Shown here: one piece after another, positions 35,870 to 45,669 of the stretch
How the letters are laid out: every line of letters begins with the position of its first letter
Position numbering within the stretch: position 1 is the first letter of the stretch
Source of the DNA: Promethearchaeota archaeon
GTDB taxonomy: Archaea > Asgardarchaeota > Lokiarchaeia > Sigyniarchaeales > SOKP01
Reading direction: 5' to 3'
NCBI GenBank assembly: GCA_029838195.1
Contig: JALGVJ010000004.1
Coordinates: 173,476-237,475 of the forward strand
DNA: 64,000 nucleotides
Notes under the pieces: generated by a model
Told to the model about the DNA's origin: nothing
What the model saw: the letters and a program-made list of their open reading frames with translations, nothing else
Database searches by the model: none
Made by a program: the position numbers and the translations under genes

Positions 35870-35959
35870 TTATTCATCACTCTTAAAGGTTTTAGAATAA
35901 TAATTTAAAAGGAATATAAAAGTTAAGTGTTTATATTTTTTCATGAAAACCACATGGTT

Positions 35960-36769
35960 TTATTTTGAAATTAAAAATTTGCGTTTAGATAAACGAATTC
36001 CAACATAAGAAATTGAAAAAGAAACGAAAAAAGCAAAAGGTAAGTTAGCAATAATGATATAGGCAAATAGAGGGGTGGTAGAGAAAAAATAAAGAGAAAT
36101 AATGAGAATCACTAAAAAAAACGAGCTAATAAATGTAATTTTTAAATGCCCTATTAGGAAACCTAAAATGAAGTTAGGAACGGTAAAAATTATAAGAATA
36201 TTCGCAATGGCTAAAACCACTAATGCTGGCATGAACATGGTGAAAATTTCTAATTGGCTATATAATAATTGATCTAGCTGAAAAAGAGAATATAAAAATT
36301 GGGTGGTATTAAGAGAAATAAATAATAAAAAGTATGATAAAGGGGCTACAATTAACCAAGAGAAAATTACCCTTTTTTTCATGGATGGCTGTTTTTTACC
36401 TTTTAAAGAGTTAGCAACTATTTTATTCATTAAAACAGGATCAATTTTATTCACGTCATATTCAGGTGAATATTCGTCAATAAAATCTAATAATATCGTC
36501 TTTAAAATTTTATTAAGAAGGATATTATTATCTTTCGAATTTGCAATCATTGCGCCCAAAAGACCTTCTCGACTCATTGAAATAATTATTAATTTTTTAT
36601 TTTCACCCAAATCGAGATAATTAATAACGCTATTTAAGGCCTCCCGAGAAAAATTTGTAATAGAGGAGAAGAATCCTATCAGTAAATTACTGTCAAATAC
36701 GCTTTCTGTTAACAACTTTTCATATAATAGAACACCATTTTCATTTAAAATATAAATGCTTTCTATCAC
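35960..36769 (-). CDS. Longin-like N-terminal domain fused to ~4 TM helices
   Basis: MIESIYILNENGVLLYEK...LLIGFFSSITNFSRE longin-type beta-beta-alpha start; hydrophobic C-terminal half. Confidence 0.65.
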   Translation of the reverse strand: MIESIYILNENGVLLYEKLLTESVFDSNLLIGFFSSITNFSREALNSVINYLDLGENKKLIIISMSREGLLGAMIANSKDNNILLNKILKTILLDFIDEYSPEYDVNKIDPVLMNKIVANSLKGKKQPSMKKRVIFSWLIVAPLSYFLLFISLNTTQFLYSLFQLDQLLYSQLEIFTMFMPALVVLAIANILIIFTVPNFILGFLIGHLKITFISSFFLVILIISLYFFSTTPLFAYIIIANLPFAFFVSFSISYVGIRLSKRKFLISK

Positions 36770-36805
36770 GAATCTTCACATTTTTTTGTTAGTCATGCCA
36801 TGCTA

Positions 36806-38608
36806 TTAATTTTTCCCGGATGAGATGGAATTCACATTGGTTTGTTGAACATATTCAATAAAATCATCTAAATCAGCTTGATATTTTTTAAAACTATATA
36901 AATGTTGTCCAAAAATTTTAATTAATAGGAGGAATACATCGTGAGAATTTCGTTTAGTGTAAATTTTGTACTTTTCATTCTTCCTTTCTTCGAGGATAAG
37001 CAAAGATTCCATATTTTTCATCCTCTCAATATCCTCTTGTTTTGGATTATCCAATTCGATTAAGAGAATTTCTCCGGATTGAGGCAACTTAGACCTATAA
37101 TCTTTTAGAGAACCTGTTTCCACGATAAACTTTGAAATTATCAAGATCTTATCACATTGCGCAATAATTTCCTCAGGGCCTTGAAATATAAAAATTACAT
37201 GATATTTAGCTTTTATTTTTTTAATGAATTCGTTGAATTTATCATATTGAAGTTTATTTAAATAAAATTGTGGTATTTTAACTAAAAGGATGGTAGGAAG
37301 CTGTAATAAGACTCTACATGTTGAAAAAATTAAAAATTCCAGAGGATTTAGCTCATGCATTTTTTTATCTTTTTTATGGGTTAATCCGGAAATTTTCATT
37401 AATTCATCAATAAAATCCTTTTTCTCTTTCCATTTTCTTAATATTTTAAAAAGTCTTGCTCTTTTTTCAAACTCCTCATAAATCTCATCTTTTAGACCTA
37501 ATAATCCGGCTTTTTTTAGTACCTTTTCTAATGCCTTTCTATGAATTCTTAAAGGACTTTTAACTTTAATGCCTTTTTTTAATGCTTTAGATAGAGGTAA
37601 ATTTTTAATATTTTTCTTTTCCTCTGCAGAAAATATGAAAATATTATTTTTTTCTTCTGTGGTAAGTAATTGAACATGTTTTCCAAATATTTTAATGGTA
37701 CCAACAAAATCCTCTTTAGTTCCTATAAGAAAATCATGTAATTTAGGCAAAATTAAATCTATTTCTTCTTGAGTTAAATGATTCGAATCAATATAGATTC
37801 CTAGGGTCTGACTATTTCGAAGTTTAAAACTAATTTTATCTACATTCGACATGAGGGATACATTTTCAAAAATTAAATGCTGCGAATCTTTGAGAAGTGG
37901 GGGTAGTTTTAAGCGCTTTAAGATCTTTTCAATTAGTAATTCAACGAGTTCATGTACGTGCAACGGTTTATTTTCATCCCATTCTTTAATAGAAGGAATT
38001 TCTAAAAAATCTTTTAATTTGATAATTCTTGAAAGTTTTGGAGAAAATGATATTTTAGGAACTAAAGGATACACTTCAAAATTCACGAATAAATTCAAAA
38101 AGAAATTGGGAAAATGAATAAAAATTTCTCTATTAAAGGGATTGTTCTCAATACTATATGATTCAAAATGTTCGTCTAAAAGTTCTAATTCTTTTTCTAA
38201 AACAGATAAATGATAGCTATATTCTCTAACAATTGTTCTATTTAACCGTTTAATAATTTTTATTGGACTAATTAATCCATCTTCATCAAAATCGGGCTCT
38301 GCAGTAATTTCATTAAAATCAATTTCAGTTTCAACCGGAGTATGGATTTTTATTAAAGGAACTCCTTTTTCTAATACATCACGATTTGTGAAAAATAATA
38401 CTTCTACATAGCTTTTCTTATAAATTAAATTAAGAATTGTCATGACACCGAAGGTTCCCTCTCTATAAATCATCCAATACCGTTTTGAACTTCGCACGGC
38501 ATCCAAGATTTTTGCTCTTAATAATTTTAATTCTTGTTCCCGCTCATCTTTTTTTTTTAGATTTTCTTCTTCTATTGTTTCATTTTTTTCTTTTTCTTTA
38601 ATCGTCAT
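36806..38608 (-). CDS. UBC/RWD-like domain(s) fused to a degenerate ABC ATPase domain
   Basis: LEKELELL...YPLVPKI...W...helix (E2-like, no catalytic Cys); ABC-like scaffold IFENVS..ISFKL..TLGI and QCDKILII..GS..LPQSG lacking Walker A, LSGG, DE and H-loop; ATG at 38608. Confidence 0.65.
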   Translation of the reverse strand: MTIKEKEKNETIEEENLKKKDEREQELKLLRAKILDAVRSSKRYWMIYREGTFGVMTILNLIYKKSYVEVLFFTNRDVLEKGVPLIKIHTPVETEIDFNEITAEPDFDEDGLISPIKIIKRLNRTIVREYSYHLSVLEKELELLDEHFESYSIENNPFNREIFIHFPNFFLNLFVNFEVYPLVPKISFSPKLSRIIKLKDFLEIPSIKEWDENKPLHVHELVELLIEKILKRLKLPPLLKDSQHLIFENVSLMSNVDKISFKLRNSQTLGIYIDSNHLTQEEIDLILPKLHDFLIGTKEDFVGTIKIFGKHVQLLTTEEKNNIFIFSAEEKKNIKNLPLSKALKKGIKVKSPLRIHRKALEKVLKKAGLLGLKDEIYEEFEKRARLFKILRKWKEKKDFIDELMKISGLTHKKDKKMHELNPLEFLIFSTCRVLLQLPTILLVKIPQFYLNKLQYDKFNEFIKKIKAKYHVIFIFQGPEEIIAQCDKILIISKFIVETGSLKDYRSKLPQSGEILLIELDNPKQEDIERMKNMESLLILEERKNEKYKIYTKRNSHDVFLLLIKIFGQHLYSFKKYQADLDDFIEYVQQTNVNSISSGKN

Positions 38609-38618
38609 TTTCTTAATT

Positions 38619-41600
38619 CTACTCCTCAATTTCTATAGTTCTATATCTAAAATATTCTTCCATTCTTGATTCTGTTTGGAGAATTTTTTCTATAGAATCT
38701 TCTCCAAATTCTCTTTTAATAATTTCTTCGACCTCATTAATGGGCAGATCGGAATAAATAGAATAATCCGTTCCCGCCTTATCTTCTAAAACTTTAGAAA
38801 TTCCTTCCATTTTTTCTAATTTCATAATGACATTTTCTTGAACTTCTTTAAAAACAATTGTAATGGTTCTTCCTTTTCCTGGAAGCTGTTCTAAAAGCTC
38901 CTTAGGACTTCCGTAATCTATCAACCCTCGATTCCTTCTAAATATGGCCACTTTATGACAAAAACGCGATTCTTCTGGATAATGAGTTATAACAATCAAA
39001 GTAGTATTAAATTGTTCATTGATCCGAGTGAGTGAAAGCCATAAATTTTCTCTCACGATGGGATCAAGACCACTCGTCGGCTCGTCCAGCCACAGAATGA
39101 TTGGTTCATGAATTAAGGAAATCGCAATTGAAACACGCCGTTTCTGACCTCCTGATAAATTTTTCACGGGTTCATACATTTTATCCTCAATTTCTAATGC
39201 TCTTAAAATTCTACGGGCCCTTCGCCTCATCTCTTTTTCTGGAATCCCATATTGGTTGCCAAAATAGAGTAAATTTTGCAAAGTCGTGAAATTTTGATAA
39301 ATTTTAGAAAGGTCTTGAGGACAATATCCATAAATGGGGCGAATTTTCTTGGCATTTTTTTTCACATCCATCCCATAAATTTGAGAAATCCCTTTAGTTT
39401 TTCTCATGCCCAATAATCCCTTGATAAACGTACTTTTCCCAGCTCCGCTTTCTCCTAACACGCCTAAAATTTCTCCGTGTTTTAATTCCAGAGAAACTGA
39501 ATCTACAATCAATTTTCGTCCAGCATAAATACATAAATCTTCGCAGAATATTGCCGGAGAATTTTTTAAATAATCGATATTTAACTTTTCTCTAATATTT
39601 AATAACGATTTTACTCTTTCTATTAAATCAAAATACGAGAGGAAAGTTATAAAACCTAACAACCAAAAAAAAGCAATTTCAACTGAAAGAATCGATATTA
39701 ATAATTGATTCCAAGGTGTAGGATCAAATGCACGATCATATTGGAAATAATCTATAATAGTGATCCCGAAAGGGCAATTTCTTAAATCTCCTCCGAAATT
39801 GGGGGCATCCCCTAATCCTCCCGTTTTTTTACTCACGCATTCTAAAAACCAATCTATTAAAGCGTTCATGTCTTCGGGTTGATACCGATAATCATACAAT
39901 GCTTTAGAAGCACTATACGTGACTAGAAAATAAGAAATACTTATGCCTACATAAGTAGAAAGAGAGGGCATGATCGTAAACCCTCCATTATCTATTTGAG
40001 CTAATTTTAAAAATTCAACCGCTGAAATTTTTGATAAGGGATCTTTTTCCAGTGAAATCAATAATTCTAAACCATAATAGGTGGATATCACGTCACTATA
40101 AAATCCCATGAATAATGAAAAACCGCCATCCGCATTTTGGCAAGACTTTATCCAATGTTCTAATGAACTTATATTAATTTTTCCCAGACCACCTAATATT
40201 TTTAAAGATGAATAGGCCCAATAACTGGTTTCTACAGTGGAAATATTTGTGTTGATTAAATCTATAATTAAATAATAATAGGAGCCAAAAAGAAATGAAA
40301 TGTATTCGGTATCATTTCCTGCCCTAAAACCACCATCTGGATTTTGTAAATCAGCTAAATAATCTTGAGTGGTGGTTCGATTCGGAAGATAAATTTGTTC
40401 ATGGGTAAAAAAAATTCTATACAATTCAATAGCGCAAAATGTAGAAAATAAACTAGAATTCATTTGAGGACGAGAACCAAAACCGCCATCTTGGGGATTG
40501 TAACAATTTTCCACGAATTCCCAGGTATTATTAATGTTTATAAGTTCAGGAATTGCTGTTGAATTGTGCTGGTAAACCGAAAGTATACCTAAATAATTTG
40601 ATTCAATTGTTATATGCCCAAACAAACCATTTCTCGCTTGATGTTCATATAACCATTGATAATAATTAGAACGCACTTGTTTAATTCTTTCTTTAAACTC
40701 ATCATCTAATAGAGAATATTTTTCAAATAGAGCAATTGTATTCATAGCAGCCCATCCCGATTTAAAAGTAGATTCATGTTTATCTCCCGGCCGTAAACCA
40801 AAGCCACCATCAGAATTATTACAATTCAATACATAATTTAAAGTTTCAAATCTTTGTAAAGGCGTGAAACCGATTTCATACAGGGAAGAAACCGCATAAA
40901 ACGTAGATTGTATATCCGAAGGTTCTCCCACTTGTCTGGCATATCCGCCGTCTAAATTGGCATACCTTAAAAGAGTAAAATAACTTATTATTAAACCCCT
41001 TTCTATTAAGCTATAGGTCATGTTCAATTCTAAGAAAGCTTTTATTCCATAGTAGGTGCTCTCAGGCGTTGGTAAAATAGTGGTGTTTGTATACGCGTAC
41101 CCTCCTTCTCGCCATGTAGAATTAATGAAACTTGAAAGATTGACGTTATTTAACAAGGAATGGGCAGAAAAATTTCCTGCTAATTTCACGGCACAATAAG
41201 TTGAGATGATGTCAGAATCATTCACAATTGGATTAAGCCTAAAGCCATATCCATGGGGCTCTTGACTTTCTTTCAAATAATTGATAATTTTGTCAATTTT
41301 TTCCTCATCTATTACGGGATCAAAAAAACTGGGTTCCAATTTAGTGAGAGTTGCAACAACTTCATACGTGGAAAACATGTTGCTTAATCCATAAATATCT
41401 GAAAAGCCCCCATCATCATTTTGTTTTTCAAATAAATAATGAAAGAATAAATCGTCTACCTCGGGTTTAAGTAAGGAATTCGATTTAGGGTTTATCAAGT
41501 TAGACTGAGAAAATTCATCATCAGAGAAATTAATTGAATAAATGGCTCTATGCGTGGAATCTATATCAACTTCAATGAATAAACCAGAACTAGGATTTTG

Positions 41601-41768
41601 ATGGGTTAATGCGAAGTAGAGCATGTCATCTTTAAGTTCTCTGATTTCTTCATCGTTAAAATACTGTTTATATGGTGTGTTTATGATTATCAATAGTAGT
41701 ATGGGCGTCGCAAGTACCAGCGATATGATAATAGTTGTTTTTATTCTTCGCTTCCATAAGTAATCTAT
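38619..41768 (-). CDS. Prenyltransferase/squalene-oxidase repeat ectodomain - TM - ABC ATPase fusion
   Basis: About 11 QxxDGGF-like repeats; TM QLLISILSVEIAFFWLLGFITFLSYF; GESGAGKST, LSGGQKRR, ILWLDEPTSGLD, ITH; frame extended from TTG 41693 to ATA 41768 to recover the signal anchor. Confidence 0.8.
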   Translation of the reverse strand: MDYLWKRRIKTTIIISLVLATPILLLIIINTPYKQYFNDEEIRELKDDMLYFALTHQNPSSGLFIEVDIDSTHRAIYSINFSDDEFSQSNLINPKSNSLLKPEVDDLFFHYLFEKQNDDGGFSDIYGLSNMFSTYEVVATLTKLEPSFFDPVIDEEKIDKIINYLKESQEPHGYGFRLNPIVNDSDIISTYCAVKLAGNFSAHSLLNNVNLSSFINSTWREGGYAYTNTTILPTPESTYYGIKAFLELNMTYSLIERGLIISYFTLLRYANLDGGYARQVGEPSDIQSTFYAVSSLYEIGFTPLQRFETLNYVLNCNNSDGGFGLRPGDKHESTFKSGWAAMNTIALFEKYSLLDDEFKERIKQVRSNYYQWLYEHQARNGLFGHITIESNYLGILSVYQHNSTAIPELININNTWEFVENCYNPQDGGFGSRPQMNSSLFSTFCAIELYRIFFTHEQIYLPNRTTTQDYLADLQNPDGGFRAGNDTEYISFLFGSYYYLIIDLINTNISTVETSYWAYSSLKILGGLGKINISSLEHWIKSCQNADGGFSLFMGFYSDVISTYYGLELLISLEKDPLSKISAVEFLKLAQIDNGGFTIMPSLSTYVGISISYFLVTYSASKALYDYRYQPEDMNALIDWFLECVSKKTGGLGDAPNFGGDLRNCPFGITIIDYFQYDRAFDPTPWNQLLISILSVEIAFFWLLGFITFLSYFDLIERVKSLLNIREKLNIDYLKNSPAIFCEDLCIYAGRKLIVDSVSLELKHGEILGVLGESGAGKSTFIKGLLGMRKTKGISQIYGMDVKKNAKKIRPIYGYCPQDLSKIYQNFTTLQNLLYFGNQYGIPEKEMRRRARRILRALEIEDKMYEPVKNLSGGQKRRVSIAISLIHEPIILWLDEPTSGLDPIVRENLWLSLTRINEQFNTTLIVITHYPEESRFCHKVAIFRRNRGLIDYGSPKELLEQLPGKGRTITIVFKEVQENVIMKLEKMEGISKVLEDKAGTDYSIYSDLPINEVEEIIKREFGEDSIEKILQTESRMEEYFRYRTIEIEE

Positions 41769-42781
41769 TTAGCACCACCCCCCTTAACTTCCATTTGATA
41801 CTCCCATTCTCTTTTTTCTTTTAATTCTTCTTCTTGTATTCTTAATTGAAAATATCTTCGAAAAGTTGCCCTATCTTTATTAAAAGAATTAATTTTTACA
41901 TTATTTTTAATTAAATATTCAATCAAATTTGGTAATTCTTGTTCAAAATTTTCAATAAATACCTCAATGACATCGTTTCCTACTCGTATTATTTTTTCTA
42001 CCGGAAAGGTTTTAAAAACATTCATGACATCTTGGTTTAATCTTTCAATCGTGAATCTAGCCAACATGCCTTTACTCGGAAGAGTTGAGATTAATATCTG
42101 AGGATTTTCAAATTCAAGGATTTTCCCTTGCCGTAAGATGGCAGCTTTATCGCAGATTAAAGAGCATTCCATGTCATGTGAGATTATAAACATTGTAGTG
42201 CCTAATGTTTGATTTAATTTCTTGAGATAACTTAAGATTTCATATCGTTTACTAGCATCGACTCCTGTTGTAGGCTCATCAAGAAATAGAACCTCTGGTT
42301 GATGAATGAGCCCAATTGCCATAGACACTCGTTTCTTCTCACCACCACTCATGCGCTCTAATGGTTTTTTCCACGTATCTTCCGGAATATCTAAAATGTG
42401 AAAGAGCTGTTCCGCAACTTCTTCCGATTTTTTTGTTTTCAAACCGTATGCAGAAGCAAAGGTATCAATATTAGCTTTAGGTTTCAAATCATAGTAAAGA
42501 TTTAACTCTTCGAGCTGAGGAACATACCCTATGGAAGCTAAAATTTCTGCATGATTGCTCTTTTTAGCAGGTGACAACCCATTTACAAGAATCTTTCCAG
42601 TCCAATATTTTTTACTCAATTGGCATGTAATCGCTCGAATTATGGTAGTTTTTCCTGCACCAGAAATCCCAAAAAAACCGATAATCTCACCTTTTTTAAC
42701 AGAAAATGAAACGTCGTGAATGACTTGTTTTTTGCCGAACTTTACGTTTAGATTCTCTACGATAATTACTAGTTCTCTCAA
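41765..42781 (-). CDS. ABC transporter ATP-binding protein (ABC-2/DrrA-like)
   Basis: GISGAGKTT, GYVPQ, MSGGEKKR, VLFLDEPTTGVD, ISHD. Confidence 0.93.
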   Translation of the reverse strand: MRELVIIVENLNVKFGKKQVIHDVSFSVKKGEIIGFFGISGAGKTTIIRAITCQLSKKYWTGKILVNGLSPAKKSNHAEILASIGYVPQLEELNLYYDLKPKANIDTFASAYGLKTKKSEEVAEQLFHILDIPEDTWKKPLERMSGGEKKRVSMAIGLIHQPEVLFLDEPTTGVDASKRYEILSYLKKLNQTLGTTMFIISHDMECSLICDKAAILRQGKILEFENPQILISTLPSKGMLARFTIERLNQDVMNVFKTFPVEKIIRVGNDVIEVFIENFEQELPNLIEYLIKNNVKINSFNKDRATFRRYFQLRIQEEELKEKREWEYQMEVKGGGAK

Positions 42782-42866
42782 TTTTATGTTCCTTCCACGT
42801 GTTTTGTTCAGATTTTTAATTTTTTAATGGGATTCATGATGGTTTTTTAAAAATTTCAAGAATTGT

Positions 42867-44096
42867 TTAAACCTCATATTTTCTTAAATAAAAAACGATG
42901 AAGCTAAGCACGAAAAATAAACAACTTATGCCTAATAACCAATAAAAATCAAAACCAAAAACCGACTTTCCTTTCGTGACTATTCCCGTTATAATGGGTT
43001 TTCCATGGGATAAAGGCAACATGTATGCTGCAACTTGTAAATAGACGGGCATGGATTCGATTGGAACGAAAATCCCGCTTAAAATCACGATTAAGATGAA
43101 AAAAGCAAAAAATAATTGATTAGCTTCCGTTTTGGTATTACTCGTACAACTTATGAATATGCCCATGCTTAAGGCGGCAAAACCAATCATGTATAATGCA
43201 AGAAATAAATCAAATAATGAGCCAACCAAATACAAGCCATTCAAGAGGCTTGAAGTTAAAAGTATGATAACTTGGGCCAATAAGATAAGGGAATACGTGA
43301 TGTATTTTGATAATAAGATCTCATGTCTTTTAAGCGGCGTGAGAAGTAATCGTGCGATGGGTTTTTCTCGAACGACGACTAAAATCGTCAAGACCATTGA
43401 AATACCAAAAATCATCATTGGTAATAACAATGTCATGGCATTATTAAATTGAAAATTATAATTGGGAGGAATGGAAAATTCTTCATAACCAACAATCTTG
43501 AATTGCGATGTTAATTTATTGTCATGAACAAATATATTAAGAGAATCTTGAACTGCATTCAAGAATTCCTGTAATTTTTGAATGTCAGAGGAATCTACAA
43601 TGCATTGAATGAACGCCGGTTGACCCCAGTTGATCATTTCAGAAAAATCCATGGGAAGGACGATGATTATACTGATTTTATTCGAAAGCAACTGATTTCT
43701 TGCTTTTTCCATTGCATAAACTTCTTCAGAAGCATTATAAAATTGCTCTAATGAAAGTTTTTGAGATTTATTCACTGCATTCACGTAAGGAATGGTATAA
43801 TTATCAATTTTATGCTCAGTATAGTCATTAGGATTTATGAATGTATTTGAATCGTAAGATATAACTATTGTTTTAATAGGAATGGGATTCTGACTAGAAC
43901 TAATGGATAAATAGGCAAAAAGCGTGATGATCAAGGGAGGAAGTACTAAGGCTATAAATAAATTATAAGGGTCACTGCGTAATAATCGAAATTCTTTTTT
44001 AACCATTTTTAAAATTCTGAAAAGGCTGGCTTTTATATTTCGAAAGAATCGCCTTGAATTCCCCTTCTTTCTCAGTCTTAAAATGCTAGAAGCCAC
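42867..44096 (-). CDS. ABC-2 type transporter permease with extracellular domain
   Basis: KKEFRLLRSD, TM1, large loop, RLLLTPL..EILLSK, LSGIFVPIESMP, LPLSH; GTG at 44096 behind GGAGGT preferred as start. Confidence 0.88.
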   Translation of the reverse strand: MASSILRLRKKGNSRRFFRNIKASLFRILKMVKKEFRLLRSDPYNLFIALVLPPLIITLFAYLSISSSQNPIPIKTIVISYDSNTFINPNDYTEHKIDNYTIPYVNAVNKSQKLSLEQFYNASEEVYAMEKARNQLLSNKISIIIVLPMDFSEMINWGQPAFIQCIVDSSDIQKLQEFLNAVQDSLNIFVHDNKLTSQFKIVGYEEFSIPPNYNFQFNNAMTLLLPMMIFGISMVLTILVVVREKPIARLLLTPLKRHEILLSKYITYSLILLAQVIILLTSSLLNGLYLVGSLFDLFLALYMIGFAALSMGIFISCTSNTKTEANQLFFAFFILIVILSGIFVPIESMPVYLQVAAYMLPLSHGKPIITGIVTKGKSVFGFDFYWLLGISCLFFVLSFIVFYLRKYEV

Positions 44097-44097
44097 T

Positions 44098-45258
44098 TCA
44101 AACCTCCACTTTTTTAATTTTAAATACAAGATAAGCCAAGAATAGAAAAACTAAACTAATCAAGTTTAATGGGATAAAATCTTCAAGAGAAATGGATAAT
44201 CCCTTAAGTGTAATGCCGGTTAACAGGGAGATCGCATGACCTAATGGTAGACTATTGATTAATACTAGCATTACGGGAGACAAGGAGGATTCATCGACAA
44301 AAGCTCCCGAGAAGATTAGAATTGTAATGAAAAACATGATATAAAGTTGATTTGCAGTTTGTTCTGAAGGACTTATGGCTGATATGAATAATCCAATGCA
44401 CGTGCCACAAAATCCGATGGATACCAACACCAGATATAGCTCGAGTAAAGAACCTAAAGAATATAACCCAAATAACGCAATAGTAACAAAAATTTCTGCT
44501 GATTGTAAGATCATGATCAAGGTATTTGCTAATAACTTGCTTAAAATGATTTCGATTTTTGCTGTCGGAGTTAATAACATTCGAGGAAGCGGCCCTTCGG
44601 AAACAATGGAAAGCGAGGTTAGATTCATTGTCGTTCCTAGAACGATAAGAGGAAGCATGATGGAAACGGCATAATTTAAAACTTGTGTTTCCCAAAAGGG
44701 AACATCAAATTCGAGGGAAGGCGCCATGACGGTCATGTTTTCTGTCATTCCCACTTCAATCCGGAATAAAGCAATGGGCTCTTGCAAGGATACTTCAATG
44801 GCGGCTACTGCGTTTAAATCTGAACCATCGACATGATAAATGATAACAGGATCTACTTTCTTAATAACGGATTCAGAAAAGTTTTCAGGTAATACGATAA
44901 ACACATCAATGGTTTCTTGCCTCAATAATTCAATATATCTATTAAAAGTATACTCATATCCAGAATAATTATGAGCAATATACGATTCATAGAGACCGAA
45001 AGAACTCGTATTATCCCGCATTATGGAAATAAAAACATCATCATACTGATGCGCATCCTTCTCCTTTCTAAAACCCTTCCAACAATGCATTTCATCCTTA
45101 CTTAAAACCGCGGCATTAAAATATTTCGTCGGGCCTCCCCCTGAAGTGAGACCAAATACGATAATTAAAATTAAGGGGATAAGAAACAAAAGGATGAGAG
45201 TCCTTCTATCAGATCGAATACGACCAAATTCTTTAAAAATCAACCCGCGAATATTCAA
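44098..45258 (-). CDS. ABC-2 type transporter permease with extracellular domain
   Basis: FKEFGRIRSD, TM1, large loop, RMLLTPT..EIILSK, FSGAF, LPLGH. Confidence 0.9.
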   Translation of the reverse strand: MNIRGLIFKEFGRIRSDRRTLILLFLIPLILIIVFGLTSGGGPTKYFNAAVLSKDEMHCWKGFRKEKDAHQYDDVFISIMRDNTSSFGLYESYIAHNYSGYEYTFNRYIELLRQETIDVFIVLPENFSESVIKKVDPVIIYHVDGSDLNAVAAIEVSLQEPIALFRIEVGMTENMTVMAPSLEFDVPFWETQVLNYAVSIMLPLIVLGTTMNLTSLSIVSEGPLPRMLLTPTAKIEIILSKLLANTLIMILQSAEIFVTIALFGLYSLGSLLELYLVLVSIGFCGTCIGLFISAISPSEQTANQLYIMFFITILIFSGAFVDESSLSPVMLVLINSLPLGHAISLLTGITLKGLSISLEDFIPLNLISLVFLFLAYLVFKIKKVEV

Positions 45259-45669
45259 GAAATGAGTCTACCCCCTTATTTTGATATTTAACAATAATAA
45301 ATTAAATTTCTTTCTTTTATTTTTTTTTATTTTTAACACGCAAATTAGAAAAATTATAGTAATTTAGATTTCACAAAGCCTCACTCCTAAAATTAATAGT
45401 AGTAATATTTCCTTTAATTAAAATAGTAGTGATTGAGATTTGTTAGAATAAAGAAAAAATAACAAATATTTTTTTTTCATTCCTGTTTTCTAAAACCACT
45501 ATGATCCGTGTCTCAAGCGTTCAGTATAAAATGAATGAATTTAAAAAAATAGAGAAAAAATCACTTCTTAATACAATGTAAATTAAATTATATTGATGAG
45601 AAAGAGATATCAATTGAGAATTTGGATTCAAATAAATAACTTTTTTTTTAATCGATAAAATCATGATTT

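Follow-up and report, generated by a model that had tools for sequence, protein, structure and literature searches.

Within a 64,000-nucleotide (nt) stretch of contig JALGVJ010000004.1 of a Promethearchaeota archaeon, hereafter the window, six minus-strand open reading frames (ORFs) at positions 35960-45258 combine the parts of an ATP-binding cassette (ABC) pump with a prenyltransferase-type repeat domain, a degenerate ATPase and a longin-fold membrane protein. The locus raises the question of whether the products of these genes, here termed g1 to g6, work as one machine and what such a machine would do. The explanation that we favour, with modest confidence, is a single lineage-specific machine built round a heteromeric type V exporter; its assembly into a complex, its transport direction and cargo, and a regulatory function of the accessory proteins are what we infer from the evidence given below. 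The six genes are listed with their most probable starts; NBD stands for nucleotide-binding domain, TM for transmembrane and aa for amino acids.

44098..45258, minus strand: g1, ABC-2 permease of 386 aa with a predicted extracytoplasmic loop between TM1 and TM2 (PF12698, hydropathy)
42867..44096, minus strand: g2, second ABC-2 permease (PF12698); likely start GTG 44096, in the ORF list TTG 44129
41765..42781, minus strand: g3, soluble, intact ABC ATPase with a C-terminal regulatory-type domain beginning at LPSKG (PF00005, TIGR01188)
38619..41768, minus strand: g4, signal-anchor, 12 prenyltransferase-type repeats, TM helix, intact ABC ATPase and C-terminal domain (PF00432, PF00005); in the ORF list 38619-41693
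36806..38608, minus strand: g5, long N-terminal helix, putative ubiquitin-conjugating (UBC)/RWD-like region (residues ~40-246 of the 607-aa frame) and dead NBD with C-terminal domain (~249-597), from the AlphaFold2 (AF2) model and motif loss; in the ORF list 36806-38629
35960..36769, minus strand: g6, predicted cytoplasmic longin-fold domain (residue 1 to ~125) and four TM helices (AF2 model, Foldseek, VIA)

An earlier, sequence-only reading of the window had proposed this same series of permease, permease, ATPase, ectodomain-TM-ATPase fusion, dead ATPase and longin protein with four TM helices. All six ORFs are present at the coordinates it gave, and domain searches and structural models agree with these identities.

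Both permeases matched ABC2_membrane_3 (PF12698) well above its cut-off of 31.6 bits, g1 with 72.8 and g2 with 104 bits. In the hydropathy profile of g1, TM1 occupies residues 20-38 and the further TM helices follow from about residue 193. The nearest solved sequence to g2 was the transmembrane domain (TMD) of the insect transporter ABCH-9C (E 2e-6). The g3 protein scored 89 bits against ABC_tran (PF00005) and 183 bits against the TIGR01188 drrA model, that is, it is DrrA-like, and the solved sequences nearest to its NBD were ABCA3 (E 1e-42), ABCA1, ABCA4, ABCA7 and TM_1403 (E 1e-36). Its catalytic motifs are intact (GISGAGKTT, VPQ, SGGEKKR, LFLDEPTTGVD, ISHD), as are those of the g4 NBD (GESGAGKST, CPQ, LSGGQKRR, LWLDEPTSGLD, ITHY). 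The kinship with ABCA/ABCH lipid transporters that had been suggested for the core is therefore borne out at the sequence level, with g2 resembling ABCH-9C and g3 resembling ABCA3, ABCA1, ABCA4 and ABCA7. Judged by these matches, the g1-g4 core is an ABC-2/type V ABC exporter of a kind already known, closest to ABCA and ABCH, with substrate translocation being predicted. In type V transporters, each TMD binds one NBD, and g1 and g2 would thus be served by g3 and g4, leaving g5 supernumerary. The earlier statement that the system has only two TMDs holds for the ABC-2 permeases, but not for membrane helices in general, since g4 adds one or two (signal-anchor and pre-NBD helix) and g6 adds four.

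The g4 protein ties one of the two intact ATPases to a large repeat domain. Against Prenyltrans (PF00432), it scored 137 bits in four stretches, which are followed by one TM helix and a 96-bit match to PF00005. The sequences nearest to its ectodomain in the PDB were RabGGTase beta (E 9e-15) and FTase beta subunits. The domain contains 12 units of the Q-x-x-DGG[FY] type, spaced about 50 residues apart, which probably make up two six-hairpin alpha/alpha toroids, and one family member additionally matches the A2M/TED toroid family PF07678. Across 57 family members, no His of the ectodomain is conserved at 93% or above, and with it the Asp/Cys/His set of a catalytic zinc site is missing; the g4 toroid is therefore not a zinc prenyltransferase. 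In the same members, the conserved acidic residues are single positions of the repeat motif and do not form the DxDD or DDxxD motifs of cyclases. From these patterns, the g4 toroid is best read as a binding scaffold.

The placement of this domain outside the cell depends on where g4 begins. In frame upstream of the listed TTG at 41693, directly after a TAA, the sequence encodes I-D-Y-L-W-K-R-R-I-K and about 20 hydrophobic residues. A basic and hydrophobic N-terminal segment was found at the same position in all 10 relatives compared, only three of which have an ATG there; several orthologues contain no ATG, GTG or TTG before the signal-anchor and begin with I-[DE]-R-K-K-K-R-R at an ATA. In the window, the corresponding ATA (41768-41766) overlaps the g3 stop codon as ATAG; a GGGGGGTGG run lies some 8 nt before it, and no Shine-Dalgarno-like run precedes TTG 41693. 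Most likely, g4 starts at the non-canonical ATA 41768, and the listed TTG lies too far downstream. Public gene calls of the g4 family have very ragged N-termini, which we attribute to the non-canonical ATA start and the lack of ATG, GTG or TTG.

Numbered from the ATA, residues 11-29 and 689-707 of g4 form hydrophobic helices, with the repeat domain between them and the NBD after the second. The ectodomain contains 15 N-X-S/T sequons where 6.6 are expected from its composition, corresponding to 2.3 per 100 residues, as opposed to 0-0.9 per 100 residues in cytoplasmic domains and proteins; the same contrast was seen in 11 of 11 orthologues. The repeat domain of about 650 residues is very probably extracellular, because it lies between a signal-anchor and the TM helix preceding a cytoplasmic NBD, and the sequon excess agrees with this placement. 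By this predicted topology, it is set apart from prenyltransferase beta subunits and terpene cyclases, which are cytoplasmic enzymes. The PF00432 match, the N-terminal anchor, the second TM helix and the excess of sequons together uphold the proposal of a prenyltransferase-repeat ectodomain.

Database domain searches were uninformative for g5, which had no Pfam match and, in NCBIfam, only a weak GldA/DrrA match over residues 386-578. Its AF2 model has a predicted local distance difference test score (pLDDT) of 83 and a predicted template modelling score (pTM) of 0.78. Residues 249-597 of the model superposed on NBDs in VIA with Z 18.3 for CbiO1 (3gfo) and 17.5 for 4yer. The top Foldseek match was TM_1403 (4yer; E 2e-12), and the best Foldseek and VIA rows include NosF and ABCA4, ABCA1, ABCA3 and ABCA7. 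TM_1403, NosF and these ABCA proteins are all NBDs with a C-terminal domain. In all six orthologues aligned, that of the host included, g5 lacks the Walker A, Q-loop, LSGGQ signature, Walker B and H-loop; for example, IDSNHLTQE stands in place of GxxGxGKT, LNPLEF in place of LSGGQ and LLVKIP in place of hhhhDE. Likewise, the invariant columns of 33 g5 homologs contain no catalytic motif. Aligned together with their orthologues, g3, the g4 NBD and g5 have in common a CxK..I block, an L-P-x-x-G junction and the C-terminal domain, and the motif pairs on which their kinship had been proposed (CDKAAIL..LPSKG, CHKVAIF..LPGKG and CDKILII..LPQSG) align in register. The g5 protein is a true pseudo-ATPase derived from the NBD subfamily of g3 and g4, since the NBD fold with its C-terminal domain superposes (Z 18.3) while every catalytic motif is gone, as the term dead ATPase had implied.

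The label UBC/RWD, given to the N-terminal region of g5 in the sequence-only reading, fared less uniformly. In direct comparisons, none of 32 members matched UQ_con, RWD or UEV in Pfam even at E 10, there was no relevant match among PDB sequences, and six-frame Pfam searches of the genome did not pick up g5. In fold searches with the whole g5 model, NBD matches dominated the results. The DSSP assignment of the AF2 model gives a helix at 122-154, strands at 156-160, 163-172, 177-183 and 192-195, and further helices as far as residue 240. Strands 3 and 4 flank the invariant E185, P188 and P191 and the near-invariant Y187, which form Y-P-x-x-P. A long helix, four strands, a YPxxP turn and helices are the layout of UBC/UEV/RWD domains, and the modelled N-domain has this alpha-beta4-alpha(-alpha) topology with the Y-P-x-x-P turn after strand 3.

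When a profile of g5 residues 40-246 was searched against 1.84 billion representatives, it found the orthologues and about 25 remote proteins, in which profile positions 103-200 matched one to four tandem units. Among 10 remote proteins scanned, seven contain Pfam RWD or UQ_con domains (five above the curated cut-off), and some also UBC_like, FANCL_d1, BRE or RING. In remote Asgard proteins, the stretches weakly matched by the g5 profile coincide with the UQ_con/RWD stretches of Pfam. Compared with Asgard E2s by hhalign, a unit-enriched alignment of the g5 N-domain matched with P 0.0024 in the strand-YPxxP region only, and the plain alignment matched merely over 15 columns at YPxxP (P 0.06-0.11). 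A feature search of the ESM Atlas with the N-domain returned low-score leads only (BRE 0.77). Thus, transitive profile matches, topology and the YPxxP turn speak for the proposed label, but direct Pfam and PDB sequence matches do not. A UBC/RWD-like nature of the g5 N-domain is only indirectly supported, by transitive homology and the modelled topology. If it is E2-like, the domain would be a non-catalytic E2 variant, because there is no Cys among its invariant and near-invariant columns.

Among the proteins related to this region are Asgard proteins of 300-700 aa with two to four tandem units, often together with RWD/UQ_con and a RING finger (P0285-P0313); by their sequences, these look like arrays of E2-variant domains. 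Elsewhere in the host genome, at a site not included in the window, two adjacent frames each hold part of a UQ_con (E2) match (G000:C72:36950-37391, profile positions 23-62 and 67-139); a frameshift, an assembly error or an intron could account for this. The same genome also encodes an intact E2 (G000:C26:20072-20548).

The sixth protein, g6, had no match in the Pfam/NCBIfam domain search. Its AF2 model (pLDDT 84) consists of a beta-beta-alpha-beta-beta-beta-alpha-alpha N-domain and four long helices at residues 130-264, and the DSSP order E-E-H-(H)-E-E-E-H-H is that of the longin fold. Foldseek matched it to adaptin sigma/mu, zeta-COP, TRAPP and Sec22 at probability 1.0. In VIA, the VAMP7 longin domain superposed with Z 13.6 and a root mean square deviation (rmsd) of 2.4 A over 110 residues and Sec22 with Z 13.4; the top 30 rows were all longin domains, with roadblock/MglB proteins lower, at Z ~9. 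Curated sequence models of longin families gave only sub-threshold matches, in six of 28 members (Sybindin four, Intu_longin_1 two; best E 0.01). The fold at Z 13.6 and the four helices, seen both in the model and by hydropathy, confirm the longin-plus-four-TM architecture that had been read from the sequence. A predicted topology with the N-terminus inside, four TM helices and the longin domain in the cytoplasm would fit the positive-inside C-terminus.

A 26-bit sub-threshold match to ABC2_membrane_3 in a distant g6 homolog prompted the idea that the four-TM part might be a degenerate ABC-2 permease. This idea was rejected for want of support: in hhalign, the g6 family gave P 0.3 with the g1 family and P 0.12 with the g2 family, and none of its members matches ABC-2 families. 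Structural neighbours of g6 in the ESM Atlas (TM ~0.45) include Asgard clusters of ~280-310 aa, in which 45-100% of members contain Arf/Ras/Roc GTPase domains. A complex prediction for full-length g5 and g6 with their own alignments scored 0.00 and was returned as 'no answer'.

Comparative genomics provides a link between the pump core and its unusual companions. The host assembly comprises 4.5 Mb in 94 contigs at 32% GC, and the closest public proteins of the locus are labelled Promethearchaeota, i.e., Loki-type Asgard. Database clusters numbered 95 for g5 and 45 for g6, all of them Asgard-labelled, and more than 230 for the g4 fusion, which are mostly annotated as 'prenyltransferase/squalene oxidase repeat-containing protein' or 'ATP-binding cassette domain-containing protein'. 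The order g1-g2-g3-g4-g5-g6 was kept in 10 of 10 relatives from several genera, with differing flanking genes, and in all of them g5 and g6 are syntenic with the pump, as a check of gene-order conservation had called for. In four of the 10, an insertion of 1-2 kb separates g2 from g3 or g4 from g5. Among 24 genomes of the family, 17 have the g4 toroid together with g5 and g6, and in the other seven none of the three was found. The six-gene operon is a conserved unit.

In a sample of 301 genomes of the phylum, full-length g6 occurred only in the family of the host (38 of 68 genomes), and outside this family only the longin domain of g6 found matches, in other proteins. A divergent cassette with 22-37% identity was present in a genome of 65-67% GC from another family of the order (G029:C165 and C147), with g3-g4-g5 on one contig and g5-g6 on another (L059, L060). 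Because of this divergent high-GC copy, the system is, on sequence evidence, older than the low-GC family of the window. Also outside the family of the window, a genome of 55% GC in a single contig (G033) encodes a 267-aa protein resembling the C-terminal half of g5, adjoining a g6-like longin-4TM gene:

L058:7311-8947 = G033:C1, ~3669300-3670950: pair of g5-like and g6-like genes, assigned by similarity

No g4-type toroid fusion was detected in that genome, where the only match was one of 18 bits (E 7e-4) elsewhere, and the g5 N-domain had no match.

As for the insertions themselves, L016 and L022 contain ~1-2 kb of extra DNA between g2 and g3. In L019 (7186-8568), the insert consists of two opposite-strand genes, for a 239-aa multi-TM protein and a 152-aa soluble protein, and lies at the same position in L021. 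The 152-aa protein showed no similarity to the g6 family in hhalign.

The arrangement of the genes points to a common transcript. The spacings of 1, ~85, -4, 10 and 36 nt reported earlier are reproduced with GTG 44096 as the start of g2, ATA 41768 of g4 and ATG 38608 of g5, each of which has a G-rich Shine-Dalgarno-like run upstream; for g2, this is a GGAGG run 6 nt before the GTG. The TTG start of g1 is preceded by the Shine-Dalgarno-like run AAGGGGGT. From gene spacing alone, g1 to g6 appear to be co-transcribed. The intergenic regions on both sides are as follows, read from the sequence.

45259..45669, minus strand: A/T-rich intergenic region of 411 nt upstream of g1, which probably holds the promoter
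35870..35959, minus strand: intergenic region after g6 with the hairpin AAAACCA-TG-TGGTTTT and T-rich/TATA-like sequence, which probably marks the end of the operon

The hairpin 3' of g6 is short and perfect and directly follows the stop codon; beyond it come the T-rich/TATA-like sequence and a GlpD-like gene. A promoter/terminator scan of the locus with bacterial models, the host being archaeal, gave nothing above shuffled expectation. The sequencing runs containing this stretch were six DNA runs from hydrothermal-vent and sediment metagenomes, with no RNA run listed.

How might such a machine work? We propose that g1 and g2 form a transmembrane heterodimer with an extracytoplasmic loop on each subunit and that g3 and g4 would be its two working ATPases. 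The g4 protein would be threaded through the membrane, holding a toroid pair of ~650 residues outside that is covalently tied to the motor. ATP-driven closure of the g3 and g4 NBDs might then extrude or flip a hydrophobic, lipid-like cargo through g1/g2, and the tethered toroids could receive and hold it as a built-in acceptor. Our leading guess for the cargo is an isoprenoid lipid or a lipid-linked molecule. Lipid-like export to a built-in acceptor appears to be the most economical mechanism because the closest solved relatives of the core are lipid transporters and the toroid pair is tethered. The g5 protein, with its two putative UBC/RWD-like interaction domains, dead NBD and a C-terminal domain as in g3 and g4, would be a non-catalytic, cytoplasm-facing component together with g6. 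The two might act as regulators of the pump or as its tether to other proteins, with g5 probably docking via its NBD-like and C-terminal domains and g6 anchoring the pair in the membrane.

Several observations weigh against this explanation. The support for one machine consists of domain identities, topology indicators, motif loss, synteny and co-occurrence, from which contacts between the proteins are deduced, and isoprenoid binding by the g4 toroid is predicted by analogy of fold only. The cassette was not found in ~44% of the sampled genomes of its own family and hence seems dispensable. To judge from its genome, the G033 pair indicates that g5 and g6 can exist apart from the pump. Moreover, the cassette contains no GTPase, trafficking or ubiquitin-like genes, and its flanking genes are not conserved and give no hint of a substrate.

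The alternative that survives best, and to which we assign a minor chance, is that g5 and g6 are not pump subunits and constitute a membrane module of their own, for instance, a small-GTPase platform that merely shares a promoter or neighbourhood with the ABC genes. The G033 pair, a C-terminal half of g5 next to a g6-like gene without a g4-type fusion, is what such a module might look like, and g5 and g6 remain adjacent in the two relatives where 1.7 kb with two opposite-strand genes separates g4 from g5 (L019 and L021). Asgard clusters of longin fold structurally near g6 often carry Arf/Ras/Roc GTPase domains, which would suit a GTPase platform. However, within the family of the window, g4 was never seen without g5 and g6, nor these without g4, and the distance of 10 nt from g4 to g5 favours a single transcript. 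The LPxxG junction and C-terminal domain common to g5, g3 and g4 further suggest descent from, and probably docking with, the pump ATPases.

It is decidedly unlikely, in our judgment, that the machine is a mechanotransducer like FtsEX, LolCDE and MacB, in which ATP hydrolysis would move the toroids via the g4 TM helix and g1/g2 so that an envelope or S-layer component is extracted, remodelled or presented, with nothing crossing the bilayer. What makes this idea attractive is the covalent connection of ectodomain and NBD by a single TM helix, a direct mechanical link, and the great size and conservation of the ectodomain with its 12 repeats; also, ABC-2 relatives such as NosDFY operate together with periplasmic partners that dock to them, and one of the best structural matches to the g5 NBD is NosF. 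Yet the permeases g1 and g2 are of the type V family, and those of its members that have been characterised move lipids, polymers or drugs, and the closest solved relatives are ABCH/ABCA lipid transporters, not the type VII proteins MacB and FtsX. Very unlikely is an importer or scavenger, with the toroids as a tethered receptor for a quinone, polyprenol, sterol-like lipid or corrinoid that g1/g2 would pull inward as ABCA4 does: some ABC importers likewise have substrate-binding domains fused to them, a formal parallel to a binding domain tethered outside the cell, the inward-directed type V transporter ABCA4 is among the NBD relatives, and the alpha/alpha toroid is a common ligand-binding scaffold (the PF07678 match of one member included), but characterised prokaryotic ABC-2 systems are, as general knowledge has it, overwhelmingly exporters.

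Returning to a type V exporter with an accessory arm, it is tempting to speculate about the partners of that arm. The g6 longin domain might recruit an Asgard small GTPase or a longin/roadblock protein and the E2-variant-like domains of g5 a ubiquitin-like or RING partner, so that the exporter would be switched or positioned by trafficking-type machinery; we give this extension little credence at present. If it were true that the accessory arm connects to GTPase or ubiquitin-like systems, it would bear on the origin of regulated membrane traffic and would show membrane lipid transport being regulated in eukaryote style in a prokaryote.

The pump core is of a known kind, and the accessory set of g4 ectodomain, g5 and g6 is an undescribed variant. 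In the literature on Asgard archaea and Lokiarchaeota dealing with longin domains, ABC transporters, RWD domains or prenyltransferase ectodomains, we found no description of such a system, subscription-only papers not being covered. Usually, the longin and E2-variant/RWD domains of Asgard archaea are counted among 'eukaryotic signature' parts to which no job is assigned; here, longin and E2-variant/RWD-like domains are fixed in a conserved operon round an ABC pump that can be assayed, which gives them a concrete biochemical setting. Likewise, an ABC ATPase linked covalently across the membrane to a large pair of toroids outside the cell would be a transporter design of which no description was found, and it is relevant to the transport of lipids to the cell surface or past it in archaea, with their isoprenoid membranes.

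Among known systems, ABCA1, ABCA3, ABCA4 and ABCA7 and insect ABCH-9C resemble the Asgard core in that an extracytoplasmic domain separates TM1 from TM2 and a regulatory C-terminal domain follows the NBD. In the latter, however, the parts are split over four polypeptides, the ectodomain is a repeat array placed on an NBD and not on a TMD, and g5 and g6 have no counterpart in ABCA/ABCH. The layout of NBD plus C-terminal domain in g3, g4 and g5 is that of Thermotoga maritima TM_1403 (4yer), which differs as an intact, stand-alone ATPase, its cargo not known, with neither an N-terminal UBC/RWD-like region nor an ectodomain. For the N-domain of g6, the comparison is with trafficking longins: VAMP7, Sec22, Ykt6, adaptin sigma/mu and the TRAPP subunits Bet5/Trs23 superpose with Z 12-13.6 and rmsd 2.4-3.3 A over 110-121 residues. 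In contrast to these, g6 lacks a SNARE motif, does not belong to a coat, carries four TM helices directly after the longin domain and is encoded in an ABC operon. NosDFY(L) of denitrifiers is similar in its ABC-2 permease, its ATPase with a C-terminal domain and its large docked extracytoplasmic partner, but NosD is a separate beta-helix protein and not an ATPase-fused toroid, and the system includes neither a dead NBD nor a longin protein. LptB2FGC differs in its type VI TMD fold, in that LptC is not fused to an ATPase and in having no such cytoplasmic accessory subunits. It is alike in possessing LptC, an extra single-TM subunit whose extracytoplasmic domain receives the lipid cargo, which is the logic that we propose for g4.

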